Origin: Asterionella formosa
Taxonomy: Eukaryota
Assembly: GCA_002256025.1 (NCBI GenBank)
Contig: NKIB01013534.1
Location: 1-55,856, forward strand
Direction of reading: 5' to 3'
DNA: 55,856 bases
The translations under genes and the position numbers were made by a program. Below are positions 999 to 54,909 of this stretch, in pieces; positions within the stretch are counted from its first letter, which is position 1; every line of letters starts with the position of its first letter. Below the pieces are notes generated by a model that was not told the DNA's origin, made no database searches, and was given only the letters and a program-made list of their open reading frames with translations.

Positions 999-1142
999 GA
1001 ATGGCCCTCAGGGGCAGTTAATTTAACCTAAAATTCTCCACCTTCTAATGAAGTACCGGTAGGTTGAAACCGCTACATGGAATTTTTAGTATATAGTGCG
1101 CGCAATTCGCTGATCACCGGACCTTCCAGGCAGGTGTACCTA

Positions 1143-2172
1143 CCTGCAAGTTGCGGTAATTTTGCTGAAAAAAAAGGCCGTTGCTAACCGTTGACCCAAA
1201 CCAAAACCCAAAAACTTTTTTGGATTGGTTTTGGTTTTGGTCAACTGACGAAAAAACGATACTATCGGTTTTTGGGAAATCCTAAATGCTGTCAACCACC
1301 CATCTACTGTGACGTAGGATGAAAAAACCATTATAAAAAAGTAAAATATTTCTATTAGACTACTTTTATATATCAAATAGTATGATTCCTATTTGGGAAT
1401 TAGTAAGTTTTCCCCGCAATTTACCGGTAGTGCCGTAAATATATATACTCCAACCACACTTCTTCATGATGAAATACAACTGACAGCAGTTTCAGCAACC
1501 CAGAGAGAATTGAATGCCGCAAACAAAAACAATGGTGTCTTGGTACAAACGAATTGGCAATGCGCCATTACCTGCAACAAAACATCTACTGATTACTTAC
1601 CAGATATATTGATACAATGGGACGTGGCGATGCACCAGTCCCAGTTGCCGGAGCGATACCGCCACCAGCAGCCTCAGTTGAAGAGGACGACGAAGATGAA
1701 GTCGTGGTGACAGAAGATTGATTTATGTGTTCCGCATAATAAATCGAAGTCGATTTGTTGTTGTTGTTGTTCTCGCCAGTGTGGTATGGTACCTGGTACT
1801 CTGGTACCGGTACCGTATAGCTATTGTTGTACATAAATAGATATGATATGCCGGTACCGGCATATGATGCGTCCTATATGTAGTGATTCTGCGACGATAT
1901 TTATTGGGTTTCTAGTGACTACATTCAAAGTAGTCAATATGGAATCCTACGTTTAGGTAACGTTTGGGTAACTTATTGGGATATGGGCACGGAATCCCCT
2001 AAACGTAATGCGTTTGGTTTTTCACTCCCGTTAGCATCGTTTTTTAGGGTTACCGAAACCAAAACACTGTTTGGTTTGGGTTTTGGTCCACTGTTAGCAA
2101 CGGCCTATAAAGATTTAGTTTTTTTATCGCAGATTAAAATGTTAGTGAAGCAAAATGCCCGCAACTTGCTGG
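1143..2172. mobile_element. ~95-bp MITE (family A) split by a nested element
   Basis: Left end cctgcaagttgcggtaattttgctgaaa at 1143. The remainder (…tttatcgcagattaaaatgttagtgaagcaaaatgcccgcaacttgctgg) lies at 2106-2172 and matches the intact copy at 8739-8833. Confidence 0.8.
1176..2105. mobile_element. ~930-bp non-autonomous TIR element with GGCC termini (PIF/Harbinger-like)
   Basis: Left GGCCGTTGCTAACCGTTGACCCAAACCAAAACC; reverse complement of right end GGCCGTTGCTAACAGTGGACCAAAACCCAAACC. No convincing ORF; TSD not cleanly recoverable. Confidence 0.75.
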
Positions 2173-3359
2173 TCAGTACCTGGTACCGTTGAGTACGTGC
2201 GACTCATGCTACCTGTATCGGTGTATGATACTGATGTGTGATGTTATGTTGAGAGTGAGGGACAATATTACTTACCGGTGTGTGCTGGTAAAACATATCA
2301 TTAATTAAATTAAACATCAACATTTTTTATGCGAAATAATTAGCATACCTACGTCATTATCAAGTCGTGATAGAATTGATGACGTTGTATTCTACTTGTT
2401 GAGAATACCGGTACACTAGTTTGTGATTCGAAGAAAAATGGGTCATGGATCTGCATTTTGTTCGAGATACCCGTAGAAGCCATATATGTAGGGTGAAATC
2501 GAAAAAGCTCTAAAAAAATTTGAGATGTAGTTGCCAATTTTTATTTTTGCTTGTATGTAGTATATAATATATTCATGCATCCATAGCGTATAGCAAGCCA
2601 CACAATAGGGCAATTTCGCCGGAAAAAATCGCAAGAGTGAAAATGGCCACGGAGAAGTTTGAATCATCGATGCAAGTGTTATTTTGTTGTACCTGGTACC
2701 ACAGAAGGAGTTCCCTGGTATCGCGTATCGATGTAGAGTAGAGTACTGGTACCAGGTACAAGCAGTCCGTTGGATTGTTGGGTGTCATGGTGTGTTGATC
2801 GACAATGCCAATCGACAGCCAGGACTCCCATTCGTGCAAACGTGCCCAGGTAGAACAACGAGGAGGCATGTGGCAAAGGATTGCTTGTCTGTAAGTACAC
2901 AATATGGTACATGGTAATCAGGTGGCATAGCTGGTGACTTGTTTGAGTTTGTTAGCATTGCTTCAACATACTTACCGGTCCTACGGTACTCGGAGTACCG
3001 TACCGGTGCTATTTACCGGTACGTTCTTAATAATAATAATATAAAATACATTATGTAAATGATGCTCGTCCCTAGATAGTTAGTAAGTACCAGGTACCGT
3101 ACAACACTCCTACTATGATGACAAAATTTGAGACGCGGCACCATTTTCAGGTGTCAGCCCAAGCAAGAAGGAGGAAGAATCTGGATGAATTTCTGTTGTC
3201 CATTAGCTACCGGCACGTACAGTGTACCGGGTATACATATTGACATTTCTGTCATTTCATGAGGAGACTCAACCGCTGTCAACCAGCCAACTGATCAACA
3301 ACATCTGCTTTAGCTGATAAGACGATCGCAAACATAAGAACAAGACTAGTCTTGATGGC

Positions 3360-8298: not shown

Positions 8299-8738
8299 TT
8301 CTACGTCTTGCCTTTCACTGCTAGTTGATCGCACACCGTTACCGATAGAACGTAATCAGAAGCTTCCTCGTCGTCTCTATGGGAGCATCAAACGAGGCGC
8401 AAGCCAAAGTGCGTAGAATTCTACGGAAAAATGTACCAGGGAGGCTTTTCGCCGCTAGAGTAGCAGAACGAGCAAGCAGCTGCAGAAAAGTGCAATCACT
8501 GGTGTATTGTTTCTTCACTTCGTCGAAACGATCAAGTTCAAGAAAGTACAGACTGATTAAATGCACGAGAGAGGACAGCAGAGCGAAGCCTACTGGTTAA
8601 GAAGGTTTCTTCGCGATTTGCCATCAACAAAGGATTTTGAAGTTTGTTTTGCATGTGTCATGAAGGGTCAAAGCAGAATTCCTTGCTGAAAATCATGATC
8701 CTTTTCCAGTCATGGACGGAGAATCGTGAAAAGAGTTA

Positions 8739-8833
8739 CCAGCAGTAAGTTGCGGTAATTTTGCTGAAAGAAAGGTTTAGCTGTCTTTATCCCAGATTAA
8801 ATTGTTGGTTTAAAAATGAACGCAACTTGCAGG
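8739..8833. mobile_element. ~95-bp MITE family A, intact copy with TA on both flanks
   Basis: TA|CCAGCAGTAAGTTGCGGTAATTTT…AAAATGAACGCAACTTGCAGG|TA; TA target plus TIRs suggests a Tc1/mariner-type (Stowaway-like) MITE. Confidence 0.85.
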
Positions 8834-8960
8834 TAACTGGTGGCAGTACAATAGTGTACCAGCTATTTACTACCGGTAGATATCTATGTTGCATAATGCA
8901 TACCGTATGATATGTGTGTACGACATTGAGAAACATGAAATCTTATACCGGTACCTGGAA

Positions 8961-9058
8961 TGCAAGTAAGTTGCAGTCATATTGCTTTAAAAAACAATTT
9001 AATATCGGATAAAGAGAGCCAAATATTTCGTTTAAGCAAAATTGACGAAATTTGCTGG
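8961..9058. mobile_element. ~95-bp MITE family A, opposite orientation
   Basis: tgcaagtaagttgcagtcatattgct…aatttaatatcggataaaga…gcaaaattgacgaaatttgctgg|ta is a degenerate reverse complement of the 20823 copy. Confidence 0.7.
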
Positions 9059-9383
9059 TACCAGGTACCTGGAACTGGAGCGCCTTGTGCCATGTACAGT
9101 ACCAGGTACCTACTGTACCGGTACTCTATCACAATGTGGTCATTTGGCCAGCTGGGGTGTTCTTTGGTTGTTCAACTCATATTTCATGCGCACCATGACC
9201 GCTGATGATAAAATCTATTCGTGAATACGGTACCGGTAATCCAACTCAATTGTTGCTGGTATCTAATAGCGATCCAAATCCGATGGAAAGAACTACGGTA
9301 CATAGGACACCAGGACAAACAGTACCGGTAGACTACCTGGTACCTGGTACCAGGTACTCCACCAGCGAGGCACCTGGTGTGTG

Positions 9384-20733: not shown

Positions 20734-20822
20734 CCTGGTGCTATGTACCTGGTACTTGGTACTACCAGGTACTTCCTACAGATACTTCTACGGTACCTGG
20801 TACTGTTCCAAGGTCCCATGTA

Positions 20823-20920
20823 CCAGCAAGTTGCTGTAATTTTGCTGAAACTAAAAGGTTAGCTATCTTTATCCGATATTAAATTGTTGGTTTAAGCAAA
20901 ATTACCGCGACGTGCACAGG
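20823..20920. mobile_element. ~95-bp MITE family A
   Basis: ta|ccagcaagttgctgtaattttgctgaaa…gcaaaattaccgcgacgtgcacagg; lies ~300 bp upstream of the pebA-like gene. Confidence 0.8.
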
Positions 20921-27177: not shown

Positions 27178-27792
27178 GGAGGTGCGGAAAGTGCATTAGG
27201 AATTTAGCATCGTTTTCCTTAGTATCATCCGGTACGTACCAGTACCAGGTTGTAAGAACAGTGTACCTTGTACCGTTATAGTTGGTATCGGATCCTTTCC
27301 AAGTACCGGTATATAAAGAGTTGATACCTGGTACCTGGTACAGTATATACAGCACCATTACATTTATCGGTACGACCAGGTACCTGGTACCTGGTACGGT
27401 CCAGGTACCAGGTAGTCTACCGGTAGTCGTTGCTCTGCCGATATGTATGTACCGGTACTATGAGAATGCCCGTTGCATCGCTGTGTCATATCCCATATCC
27501 CACATGCCGCAGCCTCCTACCGGGACATACGTCAATCATGAATTCTTGCTTCATCTTTCTTGTGATGATGGTTGTTGTTTGGTTTCCGCCTCTCTATGCG
27601 GTCTTGCTTTTGTTGCCGGTAGTTCGATGGCTCGTGATCACGAGTCCCGTGTGTACCGGGGTACTCCTACCACGGAATTTTGGCTCCTCCAATTACAGTT
27701 CGTCACAAAGACCGGCGATTCGCTCATGGGTCACTCCCATCTTGTTGACTTCTGAGGATTGCTGAATCTCATAATCCTAATCGAACTTTACT

Positions 27793-29420: not shown

Positions 29421-31195
29421 CAGCTGGATCAGAAATCATAAACAAAAGAGTCGTTTTGAAAATGTCAATGGACTATTAATCGACATTACTTGAATAGAGA
29501 ATCAAACAAAATTTCCTTCAACCTACAGATTACCGAAGCGCAGTGTTCTGAGTACTGTAAAAGTGTCAAATCTGATTGTAGCTTTGTCATTTTGAATTGT
29601 GCATCATCTAAACTACGTAAAGCAATGCGCCATTGGCGACTTCAATTTTCGTTGTCATTATTAGTGTACTAGTTAAAAATTATTTTTTACGGTTGTATTA
29701 TCTATGTTGAGTTAGATATATATACCAGATAGTATAGTGTTGTTTTCTTTTTCCATGGAGAAATTCGTTTATTTTCGACATGGTCAAGGCGGAGACAGCA
29801 TGACACAGGATTCTCCAGCTGCGCACAGTACTACACTCTCGTGTTTTATGTACAGAAAGAAATCGCAACATGTAAGAAATATAATTATATACTAGCTTCT
29901 ATAAGAGCTACCTCAGGTACCAGGTACCCTGAAAATATTTACCGGTATCCTATGTAGCCATATTGCATATATGTGAAATGTGATACCGGTATCATACATA
30001 TGTTTGATATTCCAATAGTAAAGCGGTACCCCGGTAGGCTGTTGCATCTGGCGTGATAAATGACTGTGACCATGTATGTACTAGACATGATGTTACATAT
30101 GCTTATATTTACTATTAGCAAGGCAATCAGGGGGCAATGGATGTGTCCATTCATGTATATTCTTCATAGGCATAAGGGTCATTCAAAAAATCTATTCTTG
30201 TCTTTTTCGCAAGTTCTAGTCCTCATACCGTAGTGGCCAGCAAATTCTAGTCACTGTCAGCAAATTATCAAACAAATTTCATTAGAGATTCTATATTTAT
30301 TTAGATATACTTGAATATATAAATTCGGAAAACTCACAATTATTGATTTATAATTCAATATTTAGCCATTCAAAATTGTCTCTCGCCATCATCATATTGT
30401 TGTTGATCAGCAATGCTGTCATCATAGCCAGCAAGTATGTATTGTATGACCTACATATTTTATGTATGAGTATTGTAAAACAAAAAGTGGTATGTGGGCT
30501 GTCACGTGACAGACACTGTACGCATTAAATATTACTTAAACCATCACCAACATAAACAACTTGAATTATATACGACCTGAATCCAAATGCTGTTTTCCAT
30601 TGGCCGGCCACTATAATAATGCTTGCTGGAAACCAAATACAACTTATCACTATCATAATTATAAAGTGAATAGAATAACTGTTGTTCTGTATACATTTGA
30701 TGCAATTGTTTTCGCCTGCCAGTGGGAGTGCCATGGTACTTTCTCATGCTGACGTTGTCATAACCGATATGGTACAGACCACACGTGCTGAGAAATTTAC
30801 GTTGACCACTGCCGCACCATTCCGGTATTCTATGTAGAATATGGCTGGGTACATAACATTTATATATTATGCTCTATGATGAGATGTTGACGTCAGGTAT
30901 GGATGACGTGCTTCAACATTGCTAACTGTATGTCTTACTGCCTCACTGCTGGCGTTGTTATATTTCAACCAGTGCGCAGGTAACAAATGCAAGGACGACT
31001 GACGACGAGATCCAACATTTTATTACCGTGACATCAATGCAAGAAACAATCCGCATTTTATAGGTATCTATGTGCAGTTTGTTATCTCATTGCTTCGCCT
31101 ACCAGCAGTTCACTTTATTGCTTATTGTTCGTTACCTGTGTTTGTAACAGAGTTCACCATACAATCCAACCATCCAGCAAAGATTACACTCCAAA

Positions 31196-32076
31196 ATGCT
31201 TGCCGTTTCCCGCACAACTTCCTTGAACTTAAGCAGACGACTATTCCAGACATCCTCCAAGTCGCTCAAGTCGGCGAACGATGGAACTACCATAAAGCCT
31301 GTTCTTGAAGCAGTAAAAGAACCGGCAAAGGAAAGCTTTGCCAAGGCAAATCCGTTTGCCTTCCAGCTGGTGGTTGCTACTGGAAAAACCATGGCCGCTG
31401 ATCTCATGACACAAACGGTTGCAGAAGGAAAGAAATTCGACGAGATTGACTGGAAACGAAATGGGATTTTTGTTGTTTTCGGATTTGCTTACCTTGGAGG
31501 TTTTCAATATTGGTTGATGATTAACAAGTATCGTCAGGTGAGTACCGCTCTTTCTTATTCATTCCGACTGGTAGACACGACAACGATGTCCATAATAACA
31601 TATATACATGTTTTCACGGCGTTAAAAAATCTAACTTTCTTTATCTTTTCTCGTTCCTATTACACCAAAAGTGGTTCCCATCAATGGATAGATTTGCCAA
31701 GTTGAGCTTTGCAGAAAAGCTCAAGGATACTGCTGGTATTCTTGATGCTGTGAAGATGATTGTCTTCGACCTTGTTGTTCACCTGCCGATGATTTACTTC
31801 CCATGCTACTACACTGTCAAGGAGTTTGTTAGTGGTGACTCATGGAATCCAGTTGACTGGGCCAAGAATGGAGTTACCAAGTATTCTAAGAACATGAAGG
31901 AAGACTTGAGTGCCATGATAAAGCTTTGGGGACCGTCTGACTGCGTTCAGTTTGTTCTTCCTCTCCACATTCGACTTCCATTCAGACATTTTGTTTCTTT
32001 CTTCTGGACTGCATACATTAGTTTCACTCGTGGTGCTGTTGAAAAGATTCCAGATGCAGATGATGTGTTGGCATAG
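31196..32076 (+). CDS. Mpv17/PMP22 family membrane protein (exons 31196-31537, 31672-32076)
   Basis: K(T)MAADLMTQ, IDWKRN, FGFAYLG, FDLVVH, WGPSDCVQFVLPLHIR…SFFWTAYIS; a GT-AG intron joins YRQ-WFPSM; mitochondrial-type presequence. Confidence 0.88.
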
Positions 32077-32273
32077 GGGAAAGAGAGCTGCATGTCACAA
32101 CCATAAAATACATTCAACTTTCTCTCGATTACAAAATGCTTTGATAAATGTAACAAGGCTATCAAAGAACAAACAATCATACTCTCGCACCTAGATATAA
32201 TTTTCATTATCTAAATTCTCTATTTGCTAGTTGTTGTCAATGCGTCTAAATTGGTTCGTTAATGTGCACGTGA

Positions 32274-32900
32274 CTATGAATTTACGACTGGCTTTCCAGC
32301 GACAGACACGAGATTGATGCAATATCTGTTTCCGTTACGATCAGGTAGATTATGTCCCAAATGGGTTCCATCGACAGAGACAGTTTCTCCCGAGTTCTTC
32401 AATATACGCACATTTTCCCAGACGACCTCGCTGTCTCGGAAAGAGGGCCATCCATGGACTTGACTCTCGGCAATAAACTGATCCTTGGATCGGCCAATTG
32501 GGGCAACAAAAAGTGGCTTGCCAGTAACCGAGTCGAAGAATGTAACGGGTCCATTGGATTTCAGTACAACGTCTTCGAAGGAAGTGCTCTCAAAGTACCC
32601 TGCTCTTTCGGCGAAATGTCGGTTAAAGTTGCAAATTTGATCGGCAAGCTTGTTAGAGACTCCAAACAGGAGATCTGATTGGGCGGGTTGGTTACTGGTT
32701 CCATGTCCCTTTTGCGACATGATAGATTCGTCCCCGAACAGAGGTTTTCCTCCAATTTCAATCGCATTGGTAGGATAAGAAGGAAGAATTGCGACACCTG
32801 AAACTATGGCAAACTTTTGCAGAAAGGTGCGTCGGCTGGATTGAGTAAACGCGCATACTGTTGTGGCAGCAAACGCACAGAGGAGGAAACGGTTGATCAT
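32274..32900 (-). CDS. msrB: Peptide methionine-R-sulfoxide reductase B-like protein, plastid (probably lumen) targeted
   Basis: GKPLF, HGWPSF, GTHLGH and catalytic RYCIN motifs; signal peptide TVCA-F followed by an RRTFL twin-arginine segment. Confidence 0.8.
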   Translation of the reverse strand: MINRFLLCAFAATTVCAFTQSSRRTFLQKFAIVSGVAILPSYPTNAIEIGGKPLFGDESIMSQKGHGTSNQPAQSDLLFGVSNKLADQICNFNRHFAERAGYFESTSFEDVVLKSNGPVTFFDSVTGKPLFVAPIGRSKDQFIAESQVHGWPSFRDSEVVWENVRILKNSGETVSVDGTHLGHNLPDRNGNRYCINLVSVAGKPVVNS

Positions 32901-33598
32901 ATTGAACGACGACGAGGCCCCTCTTGAATGACAGCTCTCTGATCGACTGCTTTTGAAAGTGTTGAAGGAGAAAGGAAGTGCTTGTCCGCTTCGGAAGCAG
33001 CAACAACGACTGCTGTACCAGTGGATGGGAGAGTACCCTATAGACTGCCGGTCCTAAGCAGTGCACTACTAAGGAACAAGGAATAGAATGGTTGTGAGAA
33101 CAATCCAAGAATAAGGTCGCACATCATGACAATGTCAGTATTCTCCGACCTGCTTACCTTAAAAGACACAAATGGTATTCGCTCGGGCTACTGAGTCGGA
33201 GTGTCTGAGTGCATGATAATGACAATTGTACAACAAGCAATAAGCGGTGATTTTCATGTACAGTACCTGGTGCACTCGAAAATACCGATACCGGTACCGT
33301 GGTAGTATGATTCTTCATTTCCTATTATGTGAAATATCCCGGTACATATAAAATAAATGAAATCTGAACTGATCCATCTTACCTGTTGAACTGTGCGTTG
33401 ATGTAAGTACTCGAGTATGTTTTGTTGTACCGGTACTCCACGAACTCCGTACCACCAGGTACCTCGTGCTAGAACATACCCAGCACATAGTACCAGGTAC
33501 CTCGTACCCGCGAAAGGCTATCGTACTACCAGTATGTACGGCAGGTAATCGAAGAGCATCAATTTAGAAGTCAGAACCACAGCCATGTCACTTTCAAC

Positions 33599-34522
33599 AT
33601 GAATACATCAGCCGACGATAATAGCGAACAGGAAAATCTCATGGCACTTCGACGTGTTCTGGAGGGAAGGAGTCTGGTTGTCAGTGGTGGTGCATGGACA
33701 GCGGAAGCTTGGGAGCCTGAGAGGAATAGTAGACTCCATGCGCAATTGCGTCTTGCTCGACAACTTCGAGTGACCATGGAAAATGCTGCCGACCTGGCGG
33801 AACAGAATTTGAACTCATGTCCACCCAGAAAGTTGTTGGTAGAGCTTATTCCATCCATCAACGAGTTAGTGTCTTTGACAGAGGCAGTTCGAGGGCACTA
33901 CACATTGGATGACTATCATGAGTATACTAGGTTGTTGAAGGAGGAAGAGGACACTCAAAACAAGGAGCTGGCACGGGGAACAGAAACCATAGTCCGGCAA
34001 CTCTTGGAAACAACTAGAAACAAGGAATTTCCCCCTAATCAATCAAATCATATTCCGGCAGCAACAGCTGCTGCTCCATCGAATATACTTCCTTCTGGGC
34101 ACTTTGCGATCGATTTCGATCTGAACGAACCAACACGAAAGGCATCACCATCAAGCAGCCACGTAGTCATGAAGAGTTCTCTAAAACGTAAATCTCATGA
34201 GGTTTCATCCAGATCAACTCCAAAACGTCGATCTGTTCTGCCTCGCCGCTGTCATGATTGCAAATCATCTTCGACTCGCTTCCGCAGATGCCAATTTTGG
34301 TTTTTGACAGGAAGTAAGTGTGGCAAGACCTTTTGTTCCAGTTGTTTGGAGGTGCGTTATGGTGAAGCAACTATGCAGGACTCGGAATTCGATGAAAGTT
34401 CCCACGATTGGAATTGTCCGTCGTGCCAAGGTTCTTGCCTTTGTTCTGACTGTGTCAAGAGCAGAAAAAAGGCTCTCAATAGTGCTACAGACTCAATGAT
34501 TCAACGGAGGTCGAGCCGATAG
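33599..34522 (+). CDS. Protein with a C-terminal zf-4CXXC_R1 (CDCA7/JPO-type) zinc finger
   Basis: CHDC…C…C…FCSSCLEVRYGE…WNCPSCQGSCLCSDC matches the zf-4CXXC_R1 pattern (FCxxCLxxRYGE, WxCPxCxGxCxCSxC); basic NLS-like stretch upstream. Confidence 0.8.
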   Translation: MNTSADDNSEQENLMALRRVLEGRSLVVSGGAWTAEAWEPERNSRLHAQLRLARQLRVTMENAADLAEQNLNSCPPRKLLVELIPSINELVSLTEAVRGHYTLDDYHEYTRLLKEEEDTQNKELARGTETIVRQLLETTRNKEFPPNQSNHIPAATAAAPSNILPSGHFAIDFDLNEPTRKASPSSSHVVMKSSLKRKSHEVSSRSTPKRRSVLPRRCHDCKSSSTRFRRCQFWFLTGSKCGKTFCSSCLEVRYGEATMQDSEFDESSHDWNCPSCQGSCLCSDCVKSRKKALNSATDSMIQRRSSR

Positions 34523-35116
34523 TCGATACAATCATCGATGATTTTACCTCAAGGGGATTATCACTTCACTATAGAGGTCAGGTCCGCTCGACTTTGGAGC
34601 TTTTCTAAGCACAATCGATTTATTTTACATGTGATGCTCAAACGAGATATTGGAATTATAAGCATTCCAATGAGGGATTGAGTGTATTGTGAGGAAATAA
34701 ATGGTGTCACCCTTCCGCCTGAATGTGAAGTCAAAGTGTGCCAGCCGCAGAATAAAATGATTGAGAGGGACAGTGCATATTAATTACTGCAATAGTTTCG
34801 GAAAGCAGGGCGGAAAAGGAAAAGTGATCCAAGTTAGGTTTTCTTCCACAGCTGAAGGAGTGATTAGAAAATAAGTACCTTCAAAAGTATTAAGAAACAA
34901 GCGTACAATGAATATTCATGAAGAGTGCTAGAACACACTTCAGGATAAATTAATTCATCTCTAAATCAATGTTTTCAATAATTATATTGATGTATGCGGA
35001 TGAATTTTGTCAAATCTCTGTTAGTTGTTAAGGAATTAAGTGGATTTAAGGTTTTCATACAATTATTATGGATATGAAATGAGGTACTACCGGTAATCTT
35101 GCATGAGGTAAAGTAA

Positions 35117-36700
35117 TGGCGCCTACTCTAGCGCGCTACAGTACCTGGTACTGCCCTGGAATGACCGGTCAAGATCTTTCTCACGCCGCTCGTCTGCAGA
35201 TTCTTCTGCTATATTTTAGACACTCCTAAGACTACCTAGTCTTCGGACACCTGTCGACATCAACAGCCTAACAGACATACTCTGACACCCTCCCCTGTTG
35301 ATGCTCGACACACCACATCATCCTAATGTGTATGCTCGACACATCCTTTCCTACAGGAATTCTCATAGTGCCCTCTCGTTTTCTTCGTCTTTGTTTTTCT
35401 TTTTCTTTTTTTCTTTTTAGGACTCGAACTATCAACCTCTGGTTTTCACGTATATATCCTTGTACCACTTGTACTAACGAGCCCGCTGCCATGTTGAAAT
35501 ATATGTGCCAATATGGCGCCTACTCTATCGCGCTCCAGTACTGCCCTGGAATGACCGGTCAAGATCTTTCTCATGCCGCTCGTCTGCAGATTCTTCTGCT
35601 ATATAAATCCTGTCTATTTCTGTTTAGACACTCCTCAGATAAGTCAGTGCAGATTCTTTCAATAAGCTGGGGTATGAGTGGACCAAAAGAGTTTATTGGG
35701 TAATGAGTTGCTGCTTTGAATCAGTACAATGAAATATGCATTTAGATACCTTGTTGAGCACGAGTCGGAGTATTCCATCCATCATTGTCAAGTTCCGGGT
35801 TGACCTTGATGTATGGCTTGGTCTGTCTAGTGATTTGATTTGAGTAAAGTATAAAGGCATGAGAGCAACCAACAGCATTTAGATGTGATCAGCAAGATGT
35901 CACAGATAGAATGGGTTTTCTATGGTTGTGGTTGGAAAGGATAATGACATAAAAATCTTGGAAAAAAGTGGCACATACACATGTAGGGGCGAACCAGCTA
36001 GGAGTAGCCTCCAATAGCTTTTTTTCTTCAAGGCATGAATATGAGACCCATGTTGCTACTAGATGTCAAAAGCATTCTGTAAAGCGACTAAAACAATGCA
36101 GAATTACATTCGAAAGAATCCAAGCATGTGCCCAATGATACTGGGTGGTATTATGTTATGATAGGGTGGCTCATAAACTGTTGGAAACATGTTCACCTGG
36201 TACATGAAGAGGAGATCATTCGAAAACAGGTAAAAGAACAGTCTTGATCAGAAGAGTATAATGGGCAAGCAAATGCAACAAATGGCGAAGAACATGTTGA
36301 ATCGCCCTCTGACCACCTTGAAAAGCATGAGCCACAAATACCATTCATCGTTATAGACTAGGACATCACAGGTAGTGACTCGCAAATGATTGCGTTCATG
36401 TCTAGTTATCGAAAACGATGGAGCTAGCTATCGGCCTCAAGCACCAGTTTGGCAGCTCCAGCTTCAGAATAAAATCTCTATGGCTGATGAAAAAGGCTTT
36501 GTGTTTGTTGTCTGGAGCAGAAAACAACAATTGTGTGTCAGCTGACAATAAGGAACTCTTTGAGCTTGGAGAAGGACAACTAAGAAGAGCTTCGTCTGCA
36601 CAACAATAGGCAATGGCAAAATTAAGCATGTTGTAGTTCATGGAAAGCAAACCTAGGGTAGGTGGCAGATATATTGAGGTGCAACCTAGGGGTCATAAAT
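35117..36700 (-). mobile_element. Decayed copia-like remnant with two short LTR-like copies (35492-35630 and truncated 35117-35222)
   Basis: ~110-bp direct repeat. On the minus strand each copy begins TGTCTAAA right after a purine run (GAGGAG / TAGGAG). The longer copy ends TTTCAACA and is followed by PBS-like TGGCAGCGG. RNase H-end-like remnant TSRSTRNL…IFHCTDSKQQL at 35693-35878. Confidence 0.6.
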
Positions 36701-37112
36701 AGAATCTAGTTGAAATTAATCAGTTCACAAAAATGAATCAAACTACATGTAGTGAAAGAAATGACAAAGTGCCTATGAGGAAGAGTGCCAAACAAGAAAA
36801 AATGATAATGTGTGCAGATTCTCATCAATCATTTAATTAAATCTGGTTTGCAAGATAAATCACCTTATGCAGTGGAACTGGTTTTGAACTATACTATACC
36901 TGTGTGTAGCATTCTTCTCGTCTTATTGACACAATTGGTTCTACAGCCGGTAGCAGAGCAACCTGTGCTTTCAACAAAGCAACCACGCACGCACCAGCCA
37001 TTATATTGGATTGCAGGCTTGTTTGCTGGAAGCGTATTACCAGTAGCTGGTTGGGGTGCCATAGGAATAATTCCGTGTAATATAACCATCATGCATACCG
37101 GTAAGTGGACTA

Positions 37113-37208
37113 CCTGCAGGTTGCGGTAATTATGAATAAACGAAAAGTTTAGCTTTTTTAATCCCATATTAAGTTGTTTATTCAAGCAAAATGACCGCAA
37201 CTTGCTGG
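37113..37208. mobile_element. ~95-bp MITE family A
   Basis: ta|cctgcaggttgcggtaatt…gcaaaatgaccgcaacttgctgg. Confidence 0.8.
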
Positions 37209-37856
37209 GACCAGGTACGGAGTACCTGGCATGGTATCTGGTACCTGAGGATTGGAGTATCAGGTGTAGTACATGGCACCATGTACTGCACCCTTTCCCT
37301 GGTGCAAAGCTACCAGTACCACTGCTACCTGGTAGTCAGAATGTATGAGTGACGTGTTGGCATCAGCTGAAATCTGTGGATTGAGTGACTCATCACTCAT
37401 TCTTGATCGTAACTACACATTATGTATGTAAGATCATCGCCATTTGCTCCTTCTTTGCTATCACAGGTATGACCTACTAAATGTAATAGTAATGGTCGAT
37501 AATTGTACCTGGTGCCAGATACCAGGGTACACTGCATGTAGGATACCTCGGTCTCCATCATGCTGGGACTCTGAATGCGATGGTCGTCACTGATGATACT
37601 CCATACCGAGGGAAATCATACCACCCTATTAAACCATCTGCCTTTGTTTACCAGGATACCCACCGATTCTGCTCATTCACGTACTGCTGGTAGTTTCAAT
37701 TTTAGCCTTTCTAGACCGGTGATAGTTGTGTGCCACTACCTGGTACTGCGATAATTAACGGACTCTCGGGTTTCCAAGCGCCAACAGCTCTACCCGGCAG
37801 CAAAAGCCAATTATTTTGGAAAGATCCTCGTGGTTGGGTTCAAGACCGCAAGAAAG

Positions 37857-39974
37857 ATGAAGCTCTTTCCTGCTGTCGCCTGTATCTTGATGATGTTGAC
37901 GTCTCCAATCGCCTCGTTCTCGAACTCAAATTTGAATTCGCTTACTCTGGTTGCGAACTTTGCCCTAAAAGCAACTCCTTCTTCTCCCGAAACATTGGAA
38001 CTTACCAAGTCTCGCACTCAGCGTATCATGGAGAATACCCTCTCGGAAGGACAGTAAGTATCATTACTGACTTTTCGTTTGTCTCTTAACTCGCTACGCC
38101 ATGGGTCGTCTTGTCTCACATATGCTTAACTCGATCCGATTCAATATGACGACTCTAGAACTGGAGGAGCTGGTGGGTCATCAACATACGATGCGTTTCT
38201 TCGAGTGGAACAGAATTGGGCTAGTCTCAAGGGATTCAAAGCCTTTTCCTACGATCCAAAGCTTCTAAACAAAGTACAGGATGGAATCCCTCCTCCTCCT
38301 CAGTTTGTTACAGAAGATGGTGCTGTAGGTAATCCACAATGCTGGGCGAAGCTTCGAAAACAGCAGGAAACTCGCCTTGACTACGATGTGGCCATTTGCG
38401 GTGGAACTCTTGGTATATTTTTTGGCACTGCTCTTGCTCTTCGTGGGCACAAAGTGTGCGTGGTGGAGGCAGGGCAGCTCAGGGGTAGAGAGCAGGAATG
38501 GAATATTTCAATGAAAGAATTAGAAGAGCTTCTGGAATTGGGGGTGTTGTCACAGGAAGATATTGATGCCGCAGTCACCACTGAATTCCCAGCATGTCGA
38601 TCTGGGTTTAAAAACAAGGAAGTTACCCCACTCAAGGGAGGCTATTTTGAGAATGACGTTGGTTATGAATGTGTGACCCCAAATGTCCTCAATTTAGGTG
38701 TTGCTCCTGCTGTTTTGCTCGAGCGTGTCAAGCAGCGTTTCACTGGCATTGGAGGAGTTGTCATGGAACAGACCATGCTCCAAGGAGTTTGTATATCGGT
38801 CTCGCTAGGATCCGCTTTGGACTTTGGCGAAAACATAGAACCAGTCACCGCAAAAATTGTGTTGGACTGTATGGGCAATGCATCACCCATTTCAAGGCAA
38901 CAGCGATATGGAATGAAACCAGATGGAGTTTGCGCTGTTGTTGGATCCTGCGCTTCCGGATATGAAAAGGAGACCAATTTGATCGGTGATATTATCTACA
39001 CCAATACCGAAATTCAAGATAAGGGGAAAGAGGGCAAGCTCCAGTACTTCTGGGAGGCTTTTCCTGTTGGCATCGGGCGGAACGGGAAAGCACCAGGTAC
39101 GAGTGATGTAAAGACTACTTACATGTTTACATACATGGATGCCGACGAAAATCGTCCTTCTCTGGAGACTCTCATGAATGACTATTGGAATCTCCTCCCC
39201 AAGTATCAGCAATCAATTCAAAATCCCGAAGAAGATTTGAACGTAAAAAGAGTGCTCTTCGCATATTTCCCAACTTACAGAGACTCTCCCTTGAAGCCGC
39301 AATGGAGCCGAGTACTTGCTGTGGGAGATGCATCTGGTATTCAAAGCCCCCTTAGTTTTGGGGGATTTGGTGCTTTGACGAGACACCTTGGTCGCATAAC
39401 TGGGGCTGTCTCAGAGGCAATAGAAAGTGAGTGTCTTCACAAGGATGACCTTGGCGAGATAAATGCTTATACCCCGAACCTAAGCGCAGCGTGGATGTGA
39501 GTTTTGCATGTTTGAGATAATGATTGTTTATGTCAACTGCTAACATAGTTCTAAAGGTTCCAGAAGGCTATGTCAGTCAAAGTTGGGCAAGATGTAGACC
39601 CAAAGTTTGTTAACCGACTATTGGCTACAAATTTTCAGATCATGGACGACATGGGAGAGCGCACCATAATGCCCTTCTTGCAGGATGTTGTACGCTTTGA
39701 TGGCTTAGTGGGGAGTTTGGCACGAAGTTTTGCAGCTGACCCGTCGTTCATGCCCCAAATTGTTGCTCATGTAGGCCTTCCTTCGTTGATAGATTGGTTG
39801 GGTCATCTCGGGGCCATGGGTTTGTACACTGCTCTTCATGCGGGCGTTTCTCCCTTGATTGAACCATTTGTAAATAAAGCCAAGGATCCACGCCAGCGAT
39901 TTCGTTGGCGACGTCGAATGGAAGCATGGAAATTTGGATCTGGGGCTGATTACATCTTGCAGGCTAAAGAGTAG
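37857..39974 (+). CDS. cruP: CruP/CruA-type FAD-dependent lycopene cyclase family protein, plastid-targeted (exons 37857-38053, 38159-39496, 39557-39974)
   Basis: YDVAICGGTLG, LRGREQEWNIS, QYFWEAFP, GDASGIQSPLSFGGFGALTRHL, FLQDVV and WKFGSGADY motifs; signal peptide PIAS-F; two GT-AG introns join in frame. Confidence 0.85.
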
Positions 39975-40068
39975 CTTTGAGTGGAATGCAGAAAATAAGG
40001 CATACAAACAGGCTGACGAAACAAGTCAATCTCTAGTGTCAATTCAAGATTAGCAATAATTAATAGCC

Positions 40069-41583
40069 TTAATTCTTTCCAGATTTTCCTTTGTTCTTGT
40101 CCTTTGTTGGTTGGATTCGCTCTGAACCCCATCCTGGGCATACTGTTTCAAGGAGGTTTGAATGATCATCGACCCAAAGAAGGAGTTTGACTACCTGTAG
40201 GGGTGTTAGAATTTCTTGGCATTTGGACATGCGATCATGGAAAACTTTTTGCTTGTGCTCGCAGAGACTCTTCAACCTCTCTAACAGACCCAAACACTCC
40301 TTGAGGTTGGCACTTAAATCCCGGATCTTTTGTCGTTGTTCCAAGATCTTCCGTCCTTGCTGAGGATTGATACCAAGCTCCTTGCTAAGGATGCTTGCTA
40401 TAGGATTCCGTTTCAGGTCAGTATAGAAGCCTTCATTTTGTCCAAGAGTCCACAATCCCATCTTTGTGAAGTTAGTGGGTGCCGCTAGCCTTTCCAGTTG
40501 TTCCAAGTGAAACGTGAGCTCTTGATGTCGATGACTGCCGTAGTCCGAATACATTTGACTGAATTTCGATAGAAGTGGATTGAGCTTCTCTGGTCCAGCG
40601 TCTTCTTGGATGAGTCTCTTCATTTCTGTTTCGGCTTCCTTTCGCTCTTGATCAAACTTTTGTGACTTGTTGGCGATTGTGTCTAAATGACGTTTGAGCA
40701 TTTCATTTTCAGACTTGAGGGATGCAAGTTTCGACTCGCAGTCTGATAATCGAGGCTTTTTTCTTCGCTTACTATGAAGTGGAGCTTTCGCAGCATCCAA
40801 ACTGTCAGCTTGGTTCCGTTTTCTTGTTTCTGAAGCAGTAATCATCGCGGCATCAGCAGTGTCGCTTAGGTGTTGAACAATGGAATCAATTGATTTCGGG
40901 GACGTCTCGGGACTTGACGATCCCTCAAAACCATTCAAGTCTTCCGTGGGACTGGGGCTCTCCCCGCAGAATTTTTCTGCTTCTTTTGCTTCCACTTGCT
41001 GTGTCAGGGACGAAAGAACGTTCTGAGGCAACGATATTCCCAAGCGAGATGCCAACGTTGCAAACTGAGAAACAAGCTGTTTGGCTCGCTCTTGCGGCAT
41101 TCTCGACGTTTCTGGTGCGTTTTGAGGTTGACGAAATGTCTGTTGAGTCAGTTCGCCAATTGCCGATCTACTGCTTTGATTGGCATATGAAGGTGACTCT
41201 GAAGCCGACGAAGTAATCACAGCAGGGGCGACCGCCGTGCCAGGTAGCTTGCGTGTCGTCACTGGACCGAACGGCCTTGAAGAGACCCCAAAGTCTTGCA
41301 AAAGATCCGTTTCCGCCAAAGTATTGGCATCCCGTTCATACATGATATTGGTTTGACTTTGACTTCGAGAATGCCCAGCTTGTGGTTGATATCCATTCGA
41401 GGTACCAACATTCAAAGTGCTATCTGCAGCCAGTGCGCTCATGAAGTCGGGAGATAGGAAAGATGACTCATCTAGAAGCATCATCTCGTTATAGAAGAGG
41501 CTTTCTAGGAGAGTGTGGTCTAGGCTAGCAGCGGCGTCACTATCATTATCGCCATTCATGCTTGTTGTTTCAGGATCTGACAT
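40069..41583 (-). CDS. bZIP-like transcription factor with a DOG1-like C-terminal helical domain
   Basis: Likely start MSDPET at 41583. KRRKKPR is followed by a heptad zipper (L..C..L..L..L), and C-terminal LTPLQVVKLLLWV resembles the DOG1/TGA tail. Confidence 0.7.
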   Translation of the reverse strand: MSDPETTSMNGDNDSDAAASLDHTLLESLFYNEMMLLDESSFLSPDFMSALAADSTLNVGTSNGYQPQAGHSRSQSQTNIMYERDANTLAETDLLQDFGVSSRPFGPVTTRKLPGTAVAPAVITSSASESPSYANQSSRSAIGELTQQTFRQPQNAPETSRMPQERAKQLVSQFATLASRLGISLPQNVLSSLTQQVEAKEAEKFCGESPSPTEDLNGFEGSSSPETSPKSIDSIVQHLSDTADAAMITASETRKRNQADSLDAAKAPLHSKRRKKPRLSDCESKLASLKSENEMLKRHLDTIANKSQKFDQERKEAETEMKRLIQEDAGPEKLNPLLSKFSQMYSDYGSHRHQELTFHLEQLERLAAPTNFTKMGLWTLGQNEGFYTDLKRNPIASILSKELGINPQQGRKILEQRQKIRDLSANLKECLGLLERLKSLCEHKQKVFHDRMSKCQEILTPLQVVKLLLWVDDHSNLLETVCPGWGSERIQPTKDKNKGKSGKN

Positions 41584-42161
41584 CGTCAAAAATGTTGATT
41601 TGTTTCTTTTGTACATCAATACACGTGGTATGATGTAGCTAAAATATGAGTCCTCTATTGGGACAAGCGCTATACCCATAGTATACCAGGTACTCCTACC
41701 AACCACTGTACCATGCTGTCGTGCAAACTACCGGTACCAGGTACCTTGTACCAGCTAGTCAGTCTATAAGGAGAAAAACACCAGCATCTATACGGTAGAC
41801 CACTACATACTAAATACTACCTGCTACCTGGTACCAGCACTGGTAACACACAACGAAATGTACTACCTAGTCTACCGGTACCTAAAGCTATGTAGTTTTG
41901 TACTCGGAGCCTTGTATCTGGTACCGGTACCAGGTATGTCTGCCTTTATCCTCTTACCGGTATGTATTCTTAGTTAGGCAAAGTCTCCAATGATATGCAA
42001 CTAAACTTGGTCGTATGCATGACTGCCTTGTTAGAAAACACCCCTGCCAGCAGCATGCTATGCACTTCGAATCACCATTACCGGTACCAGGTAGCCAAGT
42101 TCAAACAACAGTACCTGGTACACTAGGTACCAGGTACCTCTCGTTTTCCACAGTAATGCAA

Positions 42162-47866: not shown

Positions 47867-47976
47867 CTCACACTTGTAACGACGACCTGGTTCCTACCAG
47901 CCGGGAGTACCTGGTGGTATCATACAGAATAGCTATTTGTTAGTACGTCTGAGTGCAGCGTCAAAGACGCAAGGTA

Positions 47977-48769
47977 CCAGTAAAAAACCGCAATGACCCA
48001 TTGAGAATATTTTTGAACTGCCATGACCAATTGAACGCAGAATAACACGTTTTGCGATGAAAACTGAAATAAATGTAAATTTTGAGAGTTCTGGCTCCTT
48101 CCCGAGCATATAGGCTAGTCAGCTATGTAATTAGTTTGAGATTTGGAGCAAGTTGTTAATCTCGATAGATTTATTTGCCTGAAATGGTCGATCGACCGAA
48201 AAACCATGAAGAACACGGATTAGGGTAAGTTTAGAAATCACCGCATCATATGATATACGACGATCAATATAAAAATTTCGATATTGATTTGAACCTTCAC
48301 CTCATTTGCGACAATATAGTATATCTTCTTGTCTTGGTATTGACTTCTACGGAGATGGCAAATTATTTAGGCGCACGGCATCATCATGCAAATGCGTTAT
48401 GTATGATTGCGGGTATACCAGGTAGGGAGTACATACCAGGTTTAATCGCACCTTTCTAATAGCACGCATGACAAGTGCTTTAACACATGACCTACTAATC
48501 CGTCCTCGAAAATATACATAAATTTATATTCGTTTATCAAGAAAAAAGTATATACTGCCATAACCCATTGAAATCACTTTTTAGCTGTTTTATTATCATC
48601 GTATCTTCTGATGAGATCGTTCAATCAGAATTCTAACACGACAGCTTGATGGATCGATGCTGCTCTGACACTATCTAACAAACGGATCCGCAATTCGGTA
48701 GAATTTACCATTAGTCGGAGGAGTCAAACAAACACCCTAACTCAATGGGTCATGGCAGTTCTTTACTGG
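47977..48769. mobile_element. ~790-bp MITE with 29-bp TIRs and TA target duplication
   Basis: TA|CCAGTAAAAAACCGCAATGACCCATTGAG … CTCAATGGGTCATGGCAGTTCTTTACTGG|TA. Confidence 0.85.
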
Positions 48770-51167
48770 TACCTGGTAGTATGTATGCATCATAGCCCTG
48801 TGTAGGCCTTGTATACCGGTACCTGGTCCTAGGTACCTGGTACCCTGGTACCATGCATACCTATTCATTAGCTGAGGTCAACACACTCAGCATCACGATG
48901 CCATTCCAGACATATTCACAATACAGGTATGTTATTCATATATTTTGTATCTTTAGAATTCATGCGAAATATAGTTTATGTAAAGAATAAGAGAATTCAT
49001 ATTGGATGCTGACAATATCGATGGTAAGGATGATTGTTGATATGCTTCATGCACACCCAGCCAGTTGCCAACAACCACATCACTTCGACTTTCTCCATCA
49101 ATTCATGCCCGATAGCACTCCGAAGATTTGCAGTCGATAACACACACTAATTCAAATAGATATTTAGTTTAGCATTTCAAATTCAATATTAAATGATTTG
49201 TTCCATACCTGTTTTGTGCTCATTAGGGTTGGTTGTTGCTTACATCACAAATCATGTCGCGATATTTCTCGAGATCGATTTCGCTTTGTTTTTCTCAATC
49301 AAATAAGGGCAGATTGCAATCAAACAATTTGAATTGAAGCTGTCTTTCGAAATGATTTATCTTCTAAAAATTTATCTTGAACTTTTAAAATATTTACTTG
49401 TAACATCAACTAGTCCTGCCTTGGAAACAACCATATGATTGTGAACCATCACATGAAACCACGACAAGTAATCTTGTTCAGTATAATAGTAAAAATTATT
49501 TTCGTAAAGTGCACAACCATAAACTGTAGCATGAATTAAGACACCACAAATATCCTTATTATTTCACAAAGGAAGATGCATGTTGTAAATGAATTAGCCT
49601 CAGGAGCAGGACTTAGTTGAACTTTGAAATGAATTATTTGAAACATCAACTAATTCAGTATCGAGTTCAAAGTTTTTGTGATTTCTTCACATGAAACCGT
49701 TAAAAGTAACCTTTTCTATGGGAATAGTAGCATTAATTCATGTGAAGTACCACATAATTAACACTCCTACGTAGAACAACTTTCGAAAAGTGGCATATTT
49801 CGCGGCTTATATGTATGTCTGCATATGAGTCCAACAACATGGCAAATGTGATTGCCTTATCATGTCAGTGGACAAAATGCACGAATAATGAAAATGAGAA
49901 CCACCCTGTCACTTGGTTTGTGGAATTGGATGGAATTCGAGAATGCTTTAGCAGTAAGAGCTCCGCAATTTCGGATGGTGCCTATGTGGCCCATCATGTT
50001 ATCAACAACCTAACAGAAGTCTACAAGAGTTTGGTGTTGGCTGGGAAAATTTGGTCTTGCAAGCTCCAAGCTCATGATCCAAGAGGTCAAAAAGAATGTA
50101 CACAAATACTATAATTTGTATTTACATGACGACACCAAGGCGAATAAGAATGGCAAGCTGGCTTCTTTTCGAAGAGCAAGTTTAAGGGAGACTGCAGGAA
50201 GTGTGGCAAGTATGATTACAAGGCAGTTGATTGCTGAAGCAAGGGCAATACTACAAAAAAACTAACTACCAATTAATGGAATAAGAGAATAAACATGAAG
50301 TGTTTCAAGTGCCAGCAGATAAGTGACTGTGCAAGTGGGTGAAACAATCAACAAAATGCACCAATCAAACAGAATGTAGAAGATGCCAATACTACTACAC
50401 AAGGAATTTTTGTGCATGGTGACATGAATTGAGGTGAGCTACAATGAAACATTTAATCATATGTGCATGAATAAGGACTGTTCGCTACTCAGAGTACTAG
50501 ATAGACTAATGTTGCTATGGTACATATACGCAATGATGAGCACATCATGGAGGACATGCAGGCAGTGTGTGAAACTGTCCTTGCGGGAAACTGTGCAGCA
50601 ATTGTTGCAACCATATCAGGCACAGTGACCCTTAGTATGACAATGGACAAAGGAAAAGTGTTGAAACTCACCAATGTGCTCTATGCACTGGAGTTTAAAC
50701 AGAATATCATCAGCATTTCAAGAATCATTGACAAGGACAACAAACAACAATGACAAGATGACAATCAGAAACAACAATGGATTTTGATCTGCAAACAAGA
50801 TGAAATGAGTACAATTGGTGCAATTCACCATGTGAAAGGAATGCCTATTCTAAAGCAAATGGCGTTGGAGGTTGAACAAGAAAATGAGGAACCAGCACTA
50901 CAATCTATCATCTATAATAAAGAAGACAAGAGTGAATGGGCAAAAGTTAAAGGAAAGAAGAATACGACAAAAGCAACACATGTTAAACAAGCAACACCAA
51001 CAAAAATAATGATGTGATTGTGGAAATCACACATGCAACCTTTGTTGTTTGCTTTTTCTGGGTTGTTTTAGTCTGTTTTTCCTATGCCCTTTCAATAACA
51101 TCAACAAGTGGAACCGGCACACAGAAAGCCATGATGTAGAACCATTGTAGGATTGGCATGATGTTGC

Positions 51168-53003: not shown

Positions 53004-53157
53004 GGTAGAATGGTCAGGGAGTTCGTGGAATGCGGAAAATGAATGTAATCGAAGTTGTTAAGCGCCTTGCTTGAATGGTCCTGTTGGAAATCGTTCATCT
53101 TCGTGGAAACCCCCGACAGTCAACAATCACATCAGTCACTATACATACTGCCTGATG

Positions 53158-53250
53158 CCTTGCAAGTTGCGGTCATTTTGCTTGAACTAATATTTTAATC
53201 TAGGATGAAGATAGCTAACTCTTTAATTTCAGCAAAATACCGCAACTGGC
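53158..53250. mobile_element. ~95-bp MITE family A
   Basis: ccttgcaagttgcggtcattttgctt…tttcagcaaaataccgcaactggc; 155 bp upstream of the 53003 start. Further family fragments at 26874-26900 and 54690-54765. Confidence 0.75.
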
Positions 53251-54909
53251 CTGATATGCACCATATTTAATATACAGGGAACGTGATCCTTTACATACAT
53301 CATTTATCATACAATATACAGAAGCGAAGCGACCATCATCCAAATGTTTTCGTACATACGTACCGACTAGTACATGGAGGAACTTTTGATCCATGTTTCT
53401 TGTGCGGTCAACAACCATAGTAATGATAAATACTATTTGTACATCCCACTGATCACAATCAATCATCAATCACTCCACCATGACCTCCTTGTCCTCCCAG
53501 AAGGTTTCCACTGGTGATCCTTAGCAAGATACTCTCCATTATGTCATAGTAGTCAATGAAGTGTTGGATTTGATTTGCTGGTGAGGAAAGCCTAGCTAGA
53601 AGGTGAAGAAATGGCTGGCACTGGAGCCCACTGTTGTTCCAAGGAAAGGGCAAGGCATTAGTTTGGTCCTTAAATATCAAAGAGCTCACTTTTCTAAATC
53701 CAATACATTGTCAAGGCCAACAAGTAACTATATTTGAAAAATGTTGGTCCTCCTCCAAGCAACACCTCCACCACCACAAATCACAAATCAAAATCAATCC
53801 AGCACCCACTCCCTCCAAATCGATTTATGCATCGGTTTCTGTTCCCCCAGGCCCGATTTGAAAATTTCTAAATTTTGTTGCGACGACAGCAAAAAAGTGT
53901 GAGTTGAGTATGACGAGTTGACAATCTTTCACACGATTTATCAGCTGAAAACCATCCTCTTTTTTACTATTACTTCTACTCCCTAGTGCTCGTCGTTGTC
54001 ATGATGCCTTACCTTGTTTTGATATATGTTTCATACTTCCCTGCTCATCATTGTCACGCCTTACCTTGTTTCGATTTCCATTTCATACTTTGGCTGGTTT
54101 TAAACATTATGCCGAATTTTTCGATGCTTGTTATAATCATTCTTGTGTGATCATGTATATGTTCGGTACTCCATGCATTTTTGATGTGGCATCATCGGAT
54201 GATTTCTTAACTTTCCAGTGAAAATTCTTCTCCTGAAATTGCTTTACGGTCCCTGCTCAAACCTAAAATTGGACTGCCACAAAATCCACTTTGCCCCCAT
54301 CATATTGCCGCCATTCGACTGAAGTAGTGGTGTTTTCAAGTTGAGCTGTGACGATGCTGATGTTGATTTTCAACCACCAACAAAAGAAATTATATAAATA
54401 GCGAAATATTTTAGCGTGATGCTGGCGTGTTTACAGTTATTTTATCAATGACAATGGACATGGTAAAAGGCAATCAATGGCTGTATCAATGAAACAGAAT
54501 TGGTCAGGGGTCCAAAACCTGTGGTATCAGTGATACACCCATGATGATAACCCGGTGATCAGACCTAAAATCCCATTGGTGATTCAATAATATGATAAAA
54601 ACCACCATTTTCCAAAAAAACGGGAGATGATACACCAATTACAACAAATGACAAAATGATATAAACGGCCCTAAATAAAAATTTCACATCTGGATGAAGA
54701 TTGCTAAATTTTAGCTCCAATCTAATGACCGCAACTTATACAATGAGCGGTCATTTTGCTGAAACTGATAGCGTGGCGCAGGACGAGCAGTCACATTCAA
54801 ATTCCAGCCAATGTCGAATTTGATTCGAAACTGAAATATTTAACCGTTACGTGTCGGCCGAATTATTTTCATTGATTTTATCAAATCAATTTATCTATTT
54901 TCTTCCTGC

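Follow-up and report, generated by a model that had tools for sequence, protein, structure and literature searches.

The excision footprints of DNA transposons are textbook knowledge and are usually treated as rare and variable, and those of the plant elements Ac/Ds and Spm, a source of small insertion alleles, vary in form and are built from flanking host bases. In cyanobacteria, the 8-bp palindrome HIP1 is the most frequent word of a genome by a wide margin; it is common inside genes and has an unsettled origin. For Sleeping Beauty and mariner, a first nick 3 nt into the element gives the donor flanks 3' overhangs of 3 nt, whose end joining produces a footprint between duplicated TAs (PMC7827188); transposon cleavage can also be asymmetric, giving several footprint forms (bioRxiv 10.1101/659086). 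Here we analyze a 55,856-nt contig of the freshwater diatom Asterionella formosa (the window; all positions refer to its full length), in which two palindromic words, TACCGGTA (TA-CCGG-TA) and TACCWGGTA (W is A or T), recur in the non-coding DNA as extra units of 6 or 7 bp at TA dinucleotides. We consider it likely that these words are scars of constant form, left by end joining after excision of a TA-targeting cut-and-paste transposon family, accumulated over a long time and still forming. Wording that concerns the genome as a whole extrapolates from these 56 kb and a set of metagenome loci.

Results

Two palindromic words are strongly enriched outside coding DNA

We compared word counts in the window with those in 100 dinucleotide shuffles. 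TACCGGTA occurs 36 times against a shuffle mean of 0.30, and none of the 100 shuffles reaches 36; for TACCWGGTA, in which A and T are about equally frequent at the centre (17 and 20), the count is 37 and the mean 0.29, and none of the shuffles comes near. The former is the commonest 8-mer of the window and the latter provide its commonest 9-mers. A preliminary description of this stretch had named a lack of enrichment over background as one outcome that would speak against its footprint interpretation, and what we found is an excess of more than 100-fold. When all TA-N(1-8)-TA words were enumerated, enrichment above 100-fold was confined to the CCGG (128-fold) and CCWGG (149-fold) cores, while cores with other numbers of end letters (TACCGTA, TACGGTA, TACCWGTA) were just 4-7 fold enriched and a CCWWGG core occurred once in the window. 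So narrow a product spectrum, as judged from the words themselves, fits the joining of cleaved ends and disagrees with random internal deletion. GGTACC was considered as the core unit and rejected, as CC follows it or GG precedes it in only some copies.

The preliminary description had also claimed that the words saturate non-coding DNA and are nearly absent from coding sequences, and the counts agree. Only 3 of the 73 copies fall within the 11 frames supported by Pfam or by homologues, which make up 22.6% of the window (binomial P = 1.3e-5), and all three lie at a 5' edge, no further than about 25 codons from the start of a stop-to-stop frame. Density outside the supported frames is 1.6 copies per kb. 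The copies are arranged in 66 runs (60 single, 5 double and 1 triple) whose adjoining units have one TA in common, and 3 of the 5 double chains consist of one 6-bp and one 7-bp unit. The base 5' of the TA is G in 53% of unit sites compared with 26% for all TAs. Copies with one mismatch are roughly as numerous as perfect ones (44 against 9.5 expected and 40 against 7.7 expected for the two words), and their commonest changes are CpG transitions (TACTGGTA, TACCAGTA), which are also seen between alleles.

The cores of the words match the tips of TA-flanked elements

The window contains six copies of an inverted-repeat element of ~95 bp with the consensus TA-CCAGCAAGTTGCGGTAATTTTGCT...AGCAAAATGACCGCAACTTGCTGG-TA, to which our alignment adds 5 further copies from metagenome loci. 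Being shorter than 500 bp, non-coding, multi-copy and bounded by TA-flanked inverted repeats, it is a miniature inverted-repeat transposable element (MITE). Copies placed by alignment lie at 8737..8836 (plus strand, TA-CCAGCAG...TGCAGG-TA); at 8952..9060 (minus strand, TA-CCTGGAATGC...TTTGCTGG-TA), with a perfect scar on each side that has its TA in common with the element; at 20821..20920 (plus strand), with a left end TA-CCAGCAAGTTGC and a degenerate right end; at 37111..37210 (plus strand), with a left end TA-CCTGCAGGTTGCGG; and at 53156..53255 (minus strand), with degenerate tips.

Two longer elements have similar ends. A 1-kb non-coding element at 1141..2172 (plus strand) carries the terminal repeats of the MITE, TA-CCTGCAAGTTGCGGTAATTTTGCT...CCCGCAACTTGCTGG, with internal scars at 1422, 1790 and 1805, and its frames gave no Pfam match. 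A 0.8-kb element at 47975..48771 (plus strand), which starts TA-CCAGTAAAAAACCGCAATGACCCATTGAG and closes on a TA, has subterminal repeats, an internal scar at 48416 and another at 48770 that abuts the right TA; its ends read TA-CCAGTAAA...TTTACTGG-TA, with 34-nt arms that are 91% complementary. The MITE, the 1-kb and the 0.8-kb element all have the form TA-CC(A/T)G...C(A/T)GG-TA, which bears out an earlier claim of CCWG-type tips next to TA for elements at 8739-8833 and 47977-48769 (8738-8836 and 47975-48771 in our delimitation). The cores CCGG and CCWGG are thus, letter for letter, the first and last 2-3 letters of these elements.

A blind scan of the window for TA-flanked inverted repeats returned 10 pairs, where each of 10 Markov controls gave 0-3. 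After two of 15 regular-expression rows were dropped as not being MITE ends, 13 true MITE ends with a TA flank were left, and no direct repeat extends beyond the TA. A perfect scar that shares the TA abuts 4 of these 13 ends, and of the 3,535 TAs of the window 139 (3.9%) belong to scars, a comparison in which regional clustering is uncontrolled. By copy number, ~8 elements stand in the window beside 73 perfect scars and ~67 one-mismatch variants above chance.

A TA-flanked element of 2.3 kb at 13891-16204, with ends CATCTAAGCCGCG, has a second, inverted copy at ~46166-49815 (in the pieces 46166-46794, 47596-47676 and 49345-49815), which apparently hosts the 0.8-kb CCAG-tipped element as a nested insertion. 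A scar at 46543 is common to both copies of the 2.3-kb element, in mutated form.

Public metagenome contigs were searched for a 19-base pattern taken from the MITE terminal repeat, and 33 loci were obtained. In the 12 loci with the same MITE family, the two words number 93 in 18.2 kb. By comparison, there are 3 copies in the 9.6 kb of 6 loci with the terminal repeat on other interiors, and a single one, in locus L018, in the 68.3 kb of 21 unrelated loci, 6 of which come from viral contigs. Among viral contigs the terminal-repeat pattern matched 6 stretches, with no footprint word in any, and the triple-chain pattern gave 0 matches. One terminal repeat on several interiors is, so far as sequence can indicate, the picture expected of a non-autonomous family served by one transposase. 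The preliminary description would have been contradicted by a lack of TA-target transposons with CC(W)G ends, and such elements are present in the window as well as in these 12 loci.

Duplicated copies and haplotypes differ by units inserted at TA

A multi-copy repeat at 35116..35604 (plus strand) is bounded by two ~99-bp direct repeats, 35116-35214 and 35513-35604, which are 90% identical and whose sole gap is one of 7 bp, the letters CCTGGTA at a TA. The unit stands in the 5' copy, where it makes the word TACCTGGTA at 35142..35150 (unstranded) as seen by the gap against 35513-35604, and the 3' copy has a plain TA at 35539-40, exactly as had been reported for this pair. A copy of the same repeat in metagenome locus L030 (2192-2605), 89% identical over 426 bp, reads GCGCTCCAG-TA-CTGCC, as does the second repeat of the window, where the first repeat has ...CAG-TA-CCTGGTA-CTGCC. 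Because the L030 copy and the 3' copy of the window are both without the 7 bp, the unit at 35142 is an insertion. Two other pairs in the preliminary description stand in part. Extra DNA relative to sister repeat units is found at 10582, its size being 8 bp (TACCGGTA) and not 6; the pair at 13281 and ~13027 fits a 6-bp insertion, between copies too diverged for proof. A 176-bp duplicate (9384-9556 and 20560-20735) has unrelated flanks and is uninformative on polarity.

The segment at 35110-35640, once described as an LTR-like pair, is part of a high-copy repeat with a period of ~397 bp: summed contig depth within it is 400-2100, against ~5-45 in neighbouring single-copy bins. Tandem or solo variants are suggested by contigs from other runs that link 35609-35639 back to 35215-35256. 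Rfam gave no match on 35000-35750 and ARAGORN found no tRNA in the whole window, and given these results we make no claim of a tRNA-derived origin for the repeat.

Three of the metagenome loci (L030, L009 and L017), each from a different assembly, represent one locus as haplotypes that are 97%, 94% and 93.5% identical and belong to the same or a sister diatom. Between L030 and L017, 8 of 14 gap events are units or lie within units, in an alignment of 1,795 columns that also has 49 substitutions; unit-type events make up 9 of 10 gaps between L009 and L017 and 1 of 5 between L030 and L009. An unrelated locus pair, used as control, has 0 unit-type gaps in 64. Single insertions can be placed to the letter. 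TACCGG has been added at gatga-TA-ctctc, and within a MITE copy a 13-bp addition (CCAGGTA followed by CCGGTA) at gct-TA-aac is present in L017 and in neither of the other two alleles nor the family consensus. With one unit removed, all three haplotypes read GCATATTTATTTG; L030 and L009 carry the unit CCGGTA at the first TA and L017 carries it at the second, 4 bp away, and the same unit at two neighbouring TAs requires two independent events. Wherever polarity could be set by alignment, the short form reads as ancestral, which is the reverse of an ancestral long form, another outcome that had been named as counting against the footprint interpretation. Taken with this polymorphism, the abundance of one-mismatch variants implies that units have been accumulating for a long time and continue to arise.

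Similar gains could in principle come from a 6/7-bp minisatellite spread by replication slippage or by template switching at GTAC-type palindromes, an origin that the preliminary description had itself raised. It would suit the runs of identical units at 9334-9349, 27325-27340 and 27381-27396 and the four CCAGGTA units in L030, the excess of G before the TA (53%), and the chains whose length differs between haplotypes by exactly 7 bp at three places. However, 60 of the 66 chains in the window are single units, so the words are not tandem-only; three double chains mix 6-bp and 7-bp units; and the letters of the units are those of element tips. New units were moreover found at isolated TAs (gatga-TA-ctctc, ttgct-TA-aacaa and gca-TA-ttta), none of which lies in GTAC or has a neighbouring unit, and GTAC slippage or template switching therefore cannot explain those units. 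As the origin of the words we consider this mechanism very unlikely; slippage is probably a secondary contributor to changes in chain length.

Of the indels among the three haplotypes that are not units, 6 of 7 are exactly 5 bp long (L030 positions 117, 182, 621, 714, 748 and 1358) and the seventh is 1 bp. Several of the 5-bp indels resemble tandem duplications (GTAGA-GTAGA, CATCT-CATCT); an element of another type whose scars are duplications only, or a bias in slippage, may account for them. A further word, TATSATA (TA-TGA-TA or TA-TCA-TA), occurs 31 times in the window against 11.15 expected, a count reached by 0 of 100 shuffles, at sites such as 1842, 8906 and 12108-12166, and the MITE copy of L030, L009 and L017 also contains a TA-TGA-TA addition. 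A candidate TA-flanked inverted repeat of 0.57 kb at 11635-12206 reads TA-TGATCAGG...TCTGATCA-TA. TATSATA may represent a second, weaker footprint class, of an element with TGA...TCA ends, like mariner-type scars.

Excision and end joining as the probable source of the words

The words are enriched, they enter at TA with a definite polarity, they are polymorphic between haplotypes, and their letters match the tips of the elements. From these observations we infer an excision step, a cut offset of 2-3 nt and membership in Tc1/mariner/pogo. In the model that we favor, elements would insert at TA and duplicate it, and would end in CC(A/T)G...C(A/T)GG. At excision the transposase would cut a few nucleotides inside each end, leaving each flank with TA plus CC or TA plus CC(A/T), and end joining of TA-CC or TA-CC(A/T) to GG-TA or (A/T)GG-TA would produce TACCGGTA and TACCWGGTA, an addition of 6 or 7 bp in which the central W would be the third letter retained at one end. 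Elements with ends CCA...AGG, as at 8738-8836, could pair this third letter. Each jump would leave one scar at an about constant copy number of elements, and scars would decay by point mutation only. Scars would then outnumber elements about ten to one because each jump adds a scar and no copy, and they would form chains with common TAs because both TAs of a scar serve again as targets. The preliminary description had proposed a very active TA-target family writing footprints into the non-coding DNA; its footprint reading is supported, and its high activity is not required, as steady low activity over a long time gives the same picture.

A TA-targeted micro-insertion without a resident element, by abortive or 'hit-and-run' transposition or by integration of tiny end fragments through the same transposase, would likewise leave units at TA. 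It draws on the 6-7 unit differences among the three haplotypes that come with no presence or absence of an element, on the roughly tenfold excess of scars over elements in the window and on an unusually uniform product spectrum. Ordinary cut-and-paste transposition nevertheless predicts the same ratio of scars to elements, and the haplotype sample is a single 1.8-kb locus. We know of no reaction that writes such units directly, and we regard this alternative as quite improbable.

Several observations weigh against scars of cut-and-paste excision as the source of the words. No transposase was found by Pfam in 117/157 frames of at least 75 aa in the window or in 33/46 frames of at least 90 aa in 19 loci, nor when two large unknown frames were compared with PDB sequences. 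Because no transposase was found, we infer the name Tc1/mariner from TA flanks and the form of the scars, and 2-bp target duplications also occur in superfamilies other than Tc1/mariner/pogo. That the TA of an element is a target duplication would follow from there being no longer direct repeat, and TA is itself palindromic. Overhangs of the CCA/CCA type do not anneal as the CAG/CTG overhangs of Sleeping Beauty do, and the model does not account for the uniform products and the equal frequency of CCGG and CCWGG. The three haplotypes show no presence or absence of the MITE, and a site in empty, occupied and scarred states was found neither in the window nor among these haplotypes, a small sample. 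Their locus, moreover, differs from the window's own, and in a haplotype pair from a low-density relative (L012 and L026) 0 of 4 indels are of the unit type. Finally, chains of identical units, such as the four CCAGGTA in L030, and the 7-bp differences in chain length may be products of slippage.

A more far-reaching version of the model would make the TAs of scars preferred landing pads, with GG-TA-CC drawing the next insertion, and would have elements pay brief 'hit and run' visits, promoter-proximal DNA be rewritten by 6-7-bp palindromes at a rate rivalling that of ordinary indels, and scars serve as a ledger of every jump. We think this version unlikely and put it forward as speculation.

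Clusters of the words, assembly breaks and neighbouring genes

Perfect copies are gathered in clusters, to which no strand applies. Ten lie at 1054..3096 and ten at 8871..9356, the latter including the triple chain at 9334-9356 (CCTGGTA, CCTGGTA, CCAGGTA). Upstream of a bilin reductase gene, the cluster at 27304..27457 has 8 perfect copies with two double chains; upstream of a bZIP-like gene, the cluster at 41684..42136 has 13, with three mixed chains of a 6-bp and a 7-bp unit (CCGGTA and CCAGGTA); and at 48416..48842, within the 0.8-kb element and next to it, 4 perfect copies are accompanied by degenerate ones.

A position mostly upstream of genes (27304-27457, 41684-42136, 33289-33499 and 20746-20802) is what a selected cis-regulatory or methylation-target palindrome with CCGG or CCWGG cores, kept in promoters, would show, and the palindromic form of the words and their CpG would suit it too. 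Against such selection, the presence, number and exact position of units vary between haplotypes, down to the 4-bp shift of a single unit; copies also occur inside transposons; and decay by one mismatch is common, mainly through CpG transitions. DNA transposons that prefer open chromatin would also give upstream clustering. We therefore see little to recommend selection on the words, whose chance of being their explanation we put very low.

Logan contigs from runs X2, X6, X7 and X8 (four runs, four studies) were aligned to positions 26000-45999 of the window. Short-read graphs break at chains, as an artefact of assembly or sequencing might lead one to expect: graphs break in the cluster at 27304..27457, where loose ends at 27375-27397 continue in many different ways. 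Yet the words are found in the contigs of all four runs and in metagenome contigs of several separate assemblies, and an independent contig (X2 record 7, covering 41825-42451) matches the 41684..42136 cluster with 0 differences, and we give virtually no credence to an artefact. Contigs of the four runs stop at unit chains (27375-27397 and others) with dozens of different continuations, and de Bruijn assembly of this organism is accordingly broken up at the words; the many 'joints' that link motif clusters are in all likelihood produced by the graph from words that the clusters share. Among the aligned contigs, X6 records 12 and 14, X7 record 21 and X8 record 28 have a net 6 letters more than the window and X2 record 1 a net 7 more, and X6 record 15 has 14 gap letters with its net length unchanged; as the gaps fall outside the 12 of 63 rows for which positions were listed, we did not count them as polymorphisms of units.

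The window is eukaryotic nuclear DNA of ~42% G+C with long open frames, and the stretch is present in sequencing runs of 15 studies, mostly labelled freshwater or lake metagenomes. Pfam matches identify a TPR protein, an ankyrin/ion-channel protein, two ferredoxin-dependent bilin reductases and a POPDC-like protein, as well as Tim44, Mpv17, SelR and Img2 fragments. For two window genes the named nearest homologues are from diatoms (Synedropsis, Pseudo-nitzschia, Attheya, Nitzschia, Cylindrotheca and Fistulifera). The bilin reductase genes, at 21182-22360 and 27781-28761, are paralogs 5 kb apart with 67% nucleotide identity over 368 bp, and one source calls their homologues 15,16-dihydrobiliverdin:ferredoxin oxidoreductase. 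Intergenic tandem repeats lie at 18012-18466 (period ~115 bp), 11725-11948 (~40-66 bp) and 10789-10906 (59 bp). Remnants of other mobile elements include a Copia-type Pol beta-barrel fragment at 50505-50750 (E = 6.9e-11) and a weak SCAND3-like zinc-finger match at 366-644 (E = 3.5e-4).

Discussion

One stereotyped scar would, on this account, be the commonest word of this diatom's non-coding DNA and, at one locus, the origin of roughly half of the indels that separate the haplotypes. Were the same true of the whole genome, the words would offer a direct count of past transposition events and represent a sequence-specific insertion process that places CpG-bearing palindromes near promoters. Motif-discovery tools would then misreport them as regulatory sites, and their chains would explain the fragmentation of short-read assemblies of such diatoms. 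They would also provide a natural system for the repair of transposon-left double-strand breaks in diatoms.

In the literature within our search, which left most subscription journals outside, we found no description of a natural genome in which a stereotyped footprint is the top k-mer, exceeds 1 per kb of non-coding DNA, forms chains and dominates indels. A footprint of Tc1/mariner type and Stowaway-like MITEs are known, and natural accumulation on this scale, of which we could not find a precedent, is apparently new.

The closest likeness is to Tc1/mariner footprints such as that of Sleeping Beauty, TAC(A/T)GTA, which in the sources cited above also consist of a duplicated TA around a few terminal nucleotides, with a central A or T set by orientation and end joining after staggered cuts. 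The diatom scars differ in keeping CC and GG with or without a central W, in having two products that are equally common, and in reaching 1.6 per kb outside supported frames, providing the top 8- and 9-mers and forming chains. The elements resemble Stowaway-like MITEs derived from Tc1/mariner transposons in their length of ~95 bp, non-coding interior, terminal inverted repeats, TA flanks, many copies and the use of one terminal repeat on several interiors; they differ in tips that read CC(A/T)GCAAGTTGCGG, and neither an autonomous partner nor an empty site of an element was found in the window or the loci. In contrast to HIP1, the diatom words avoid coding DNA, are insertions at TA and match transposon tips. 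Unlike the scars of Ac/Ds and Spm, the diatom scar is constant, and it can therefore be counted genome-wide.

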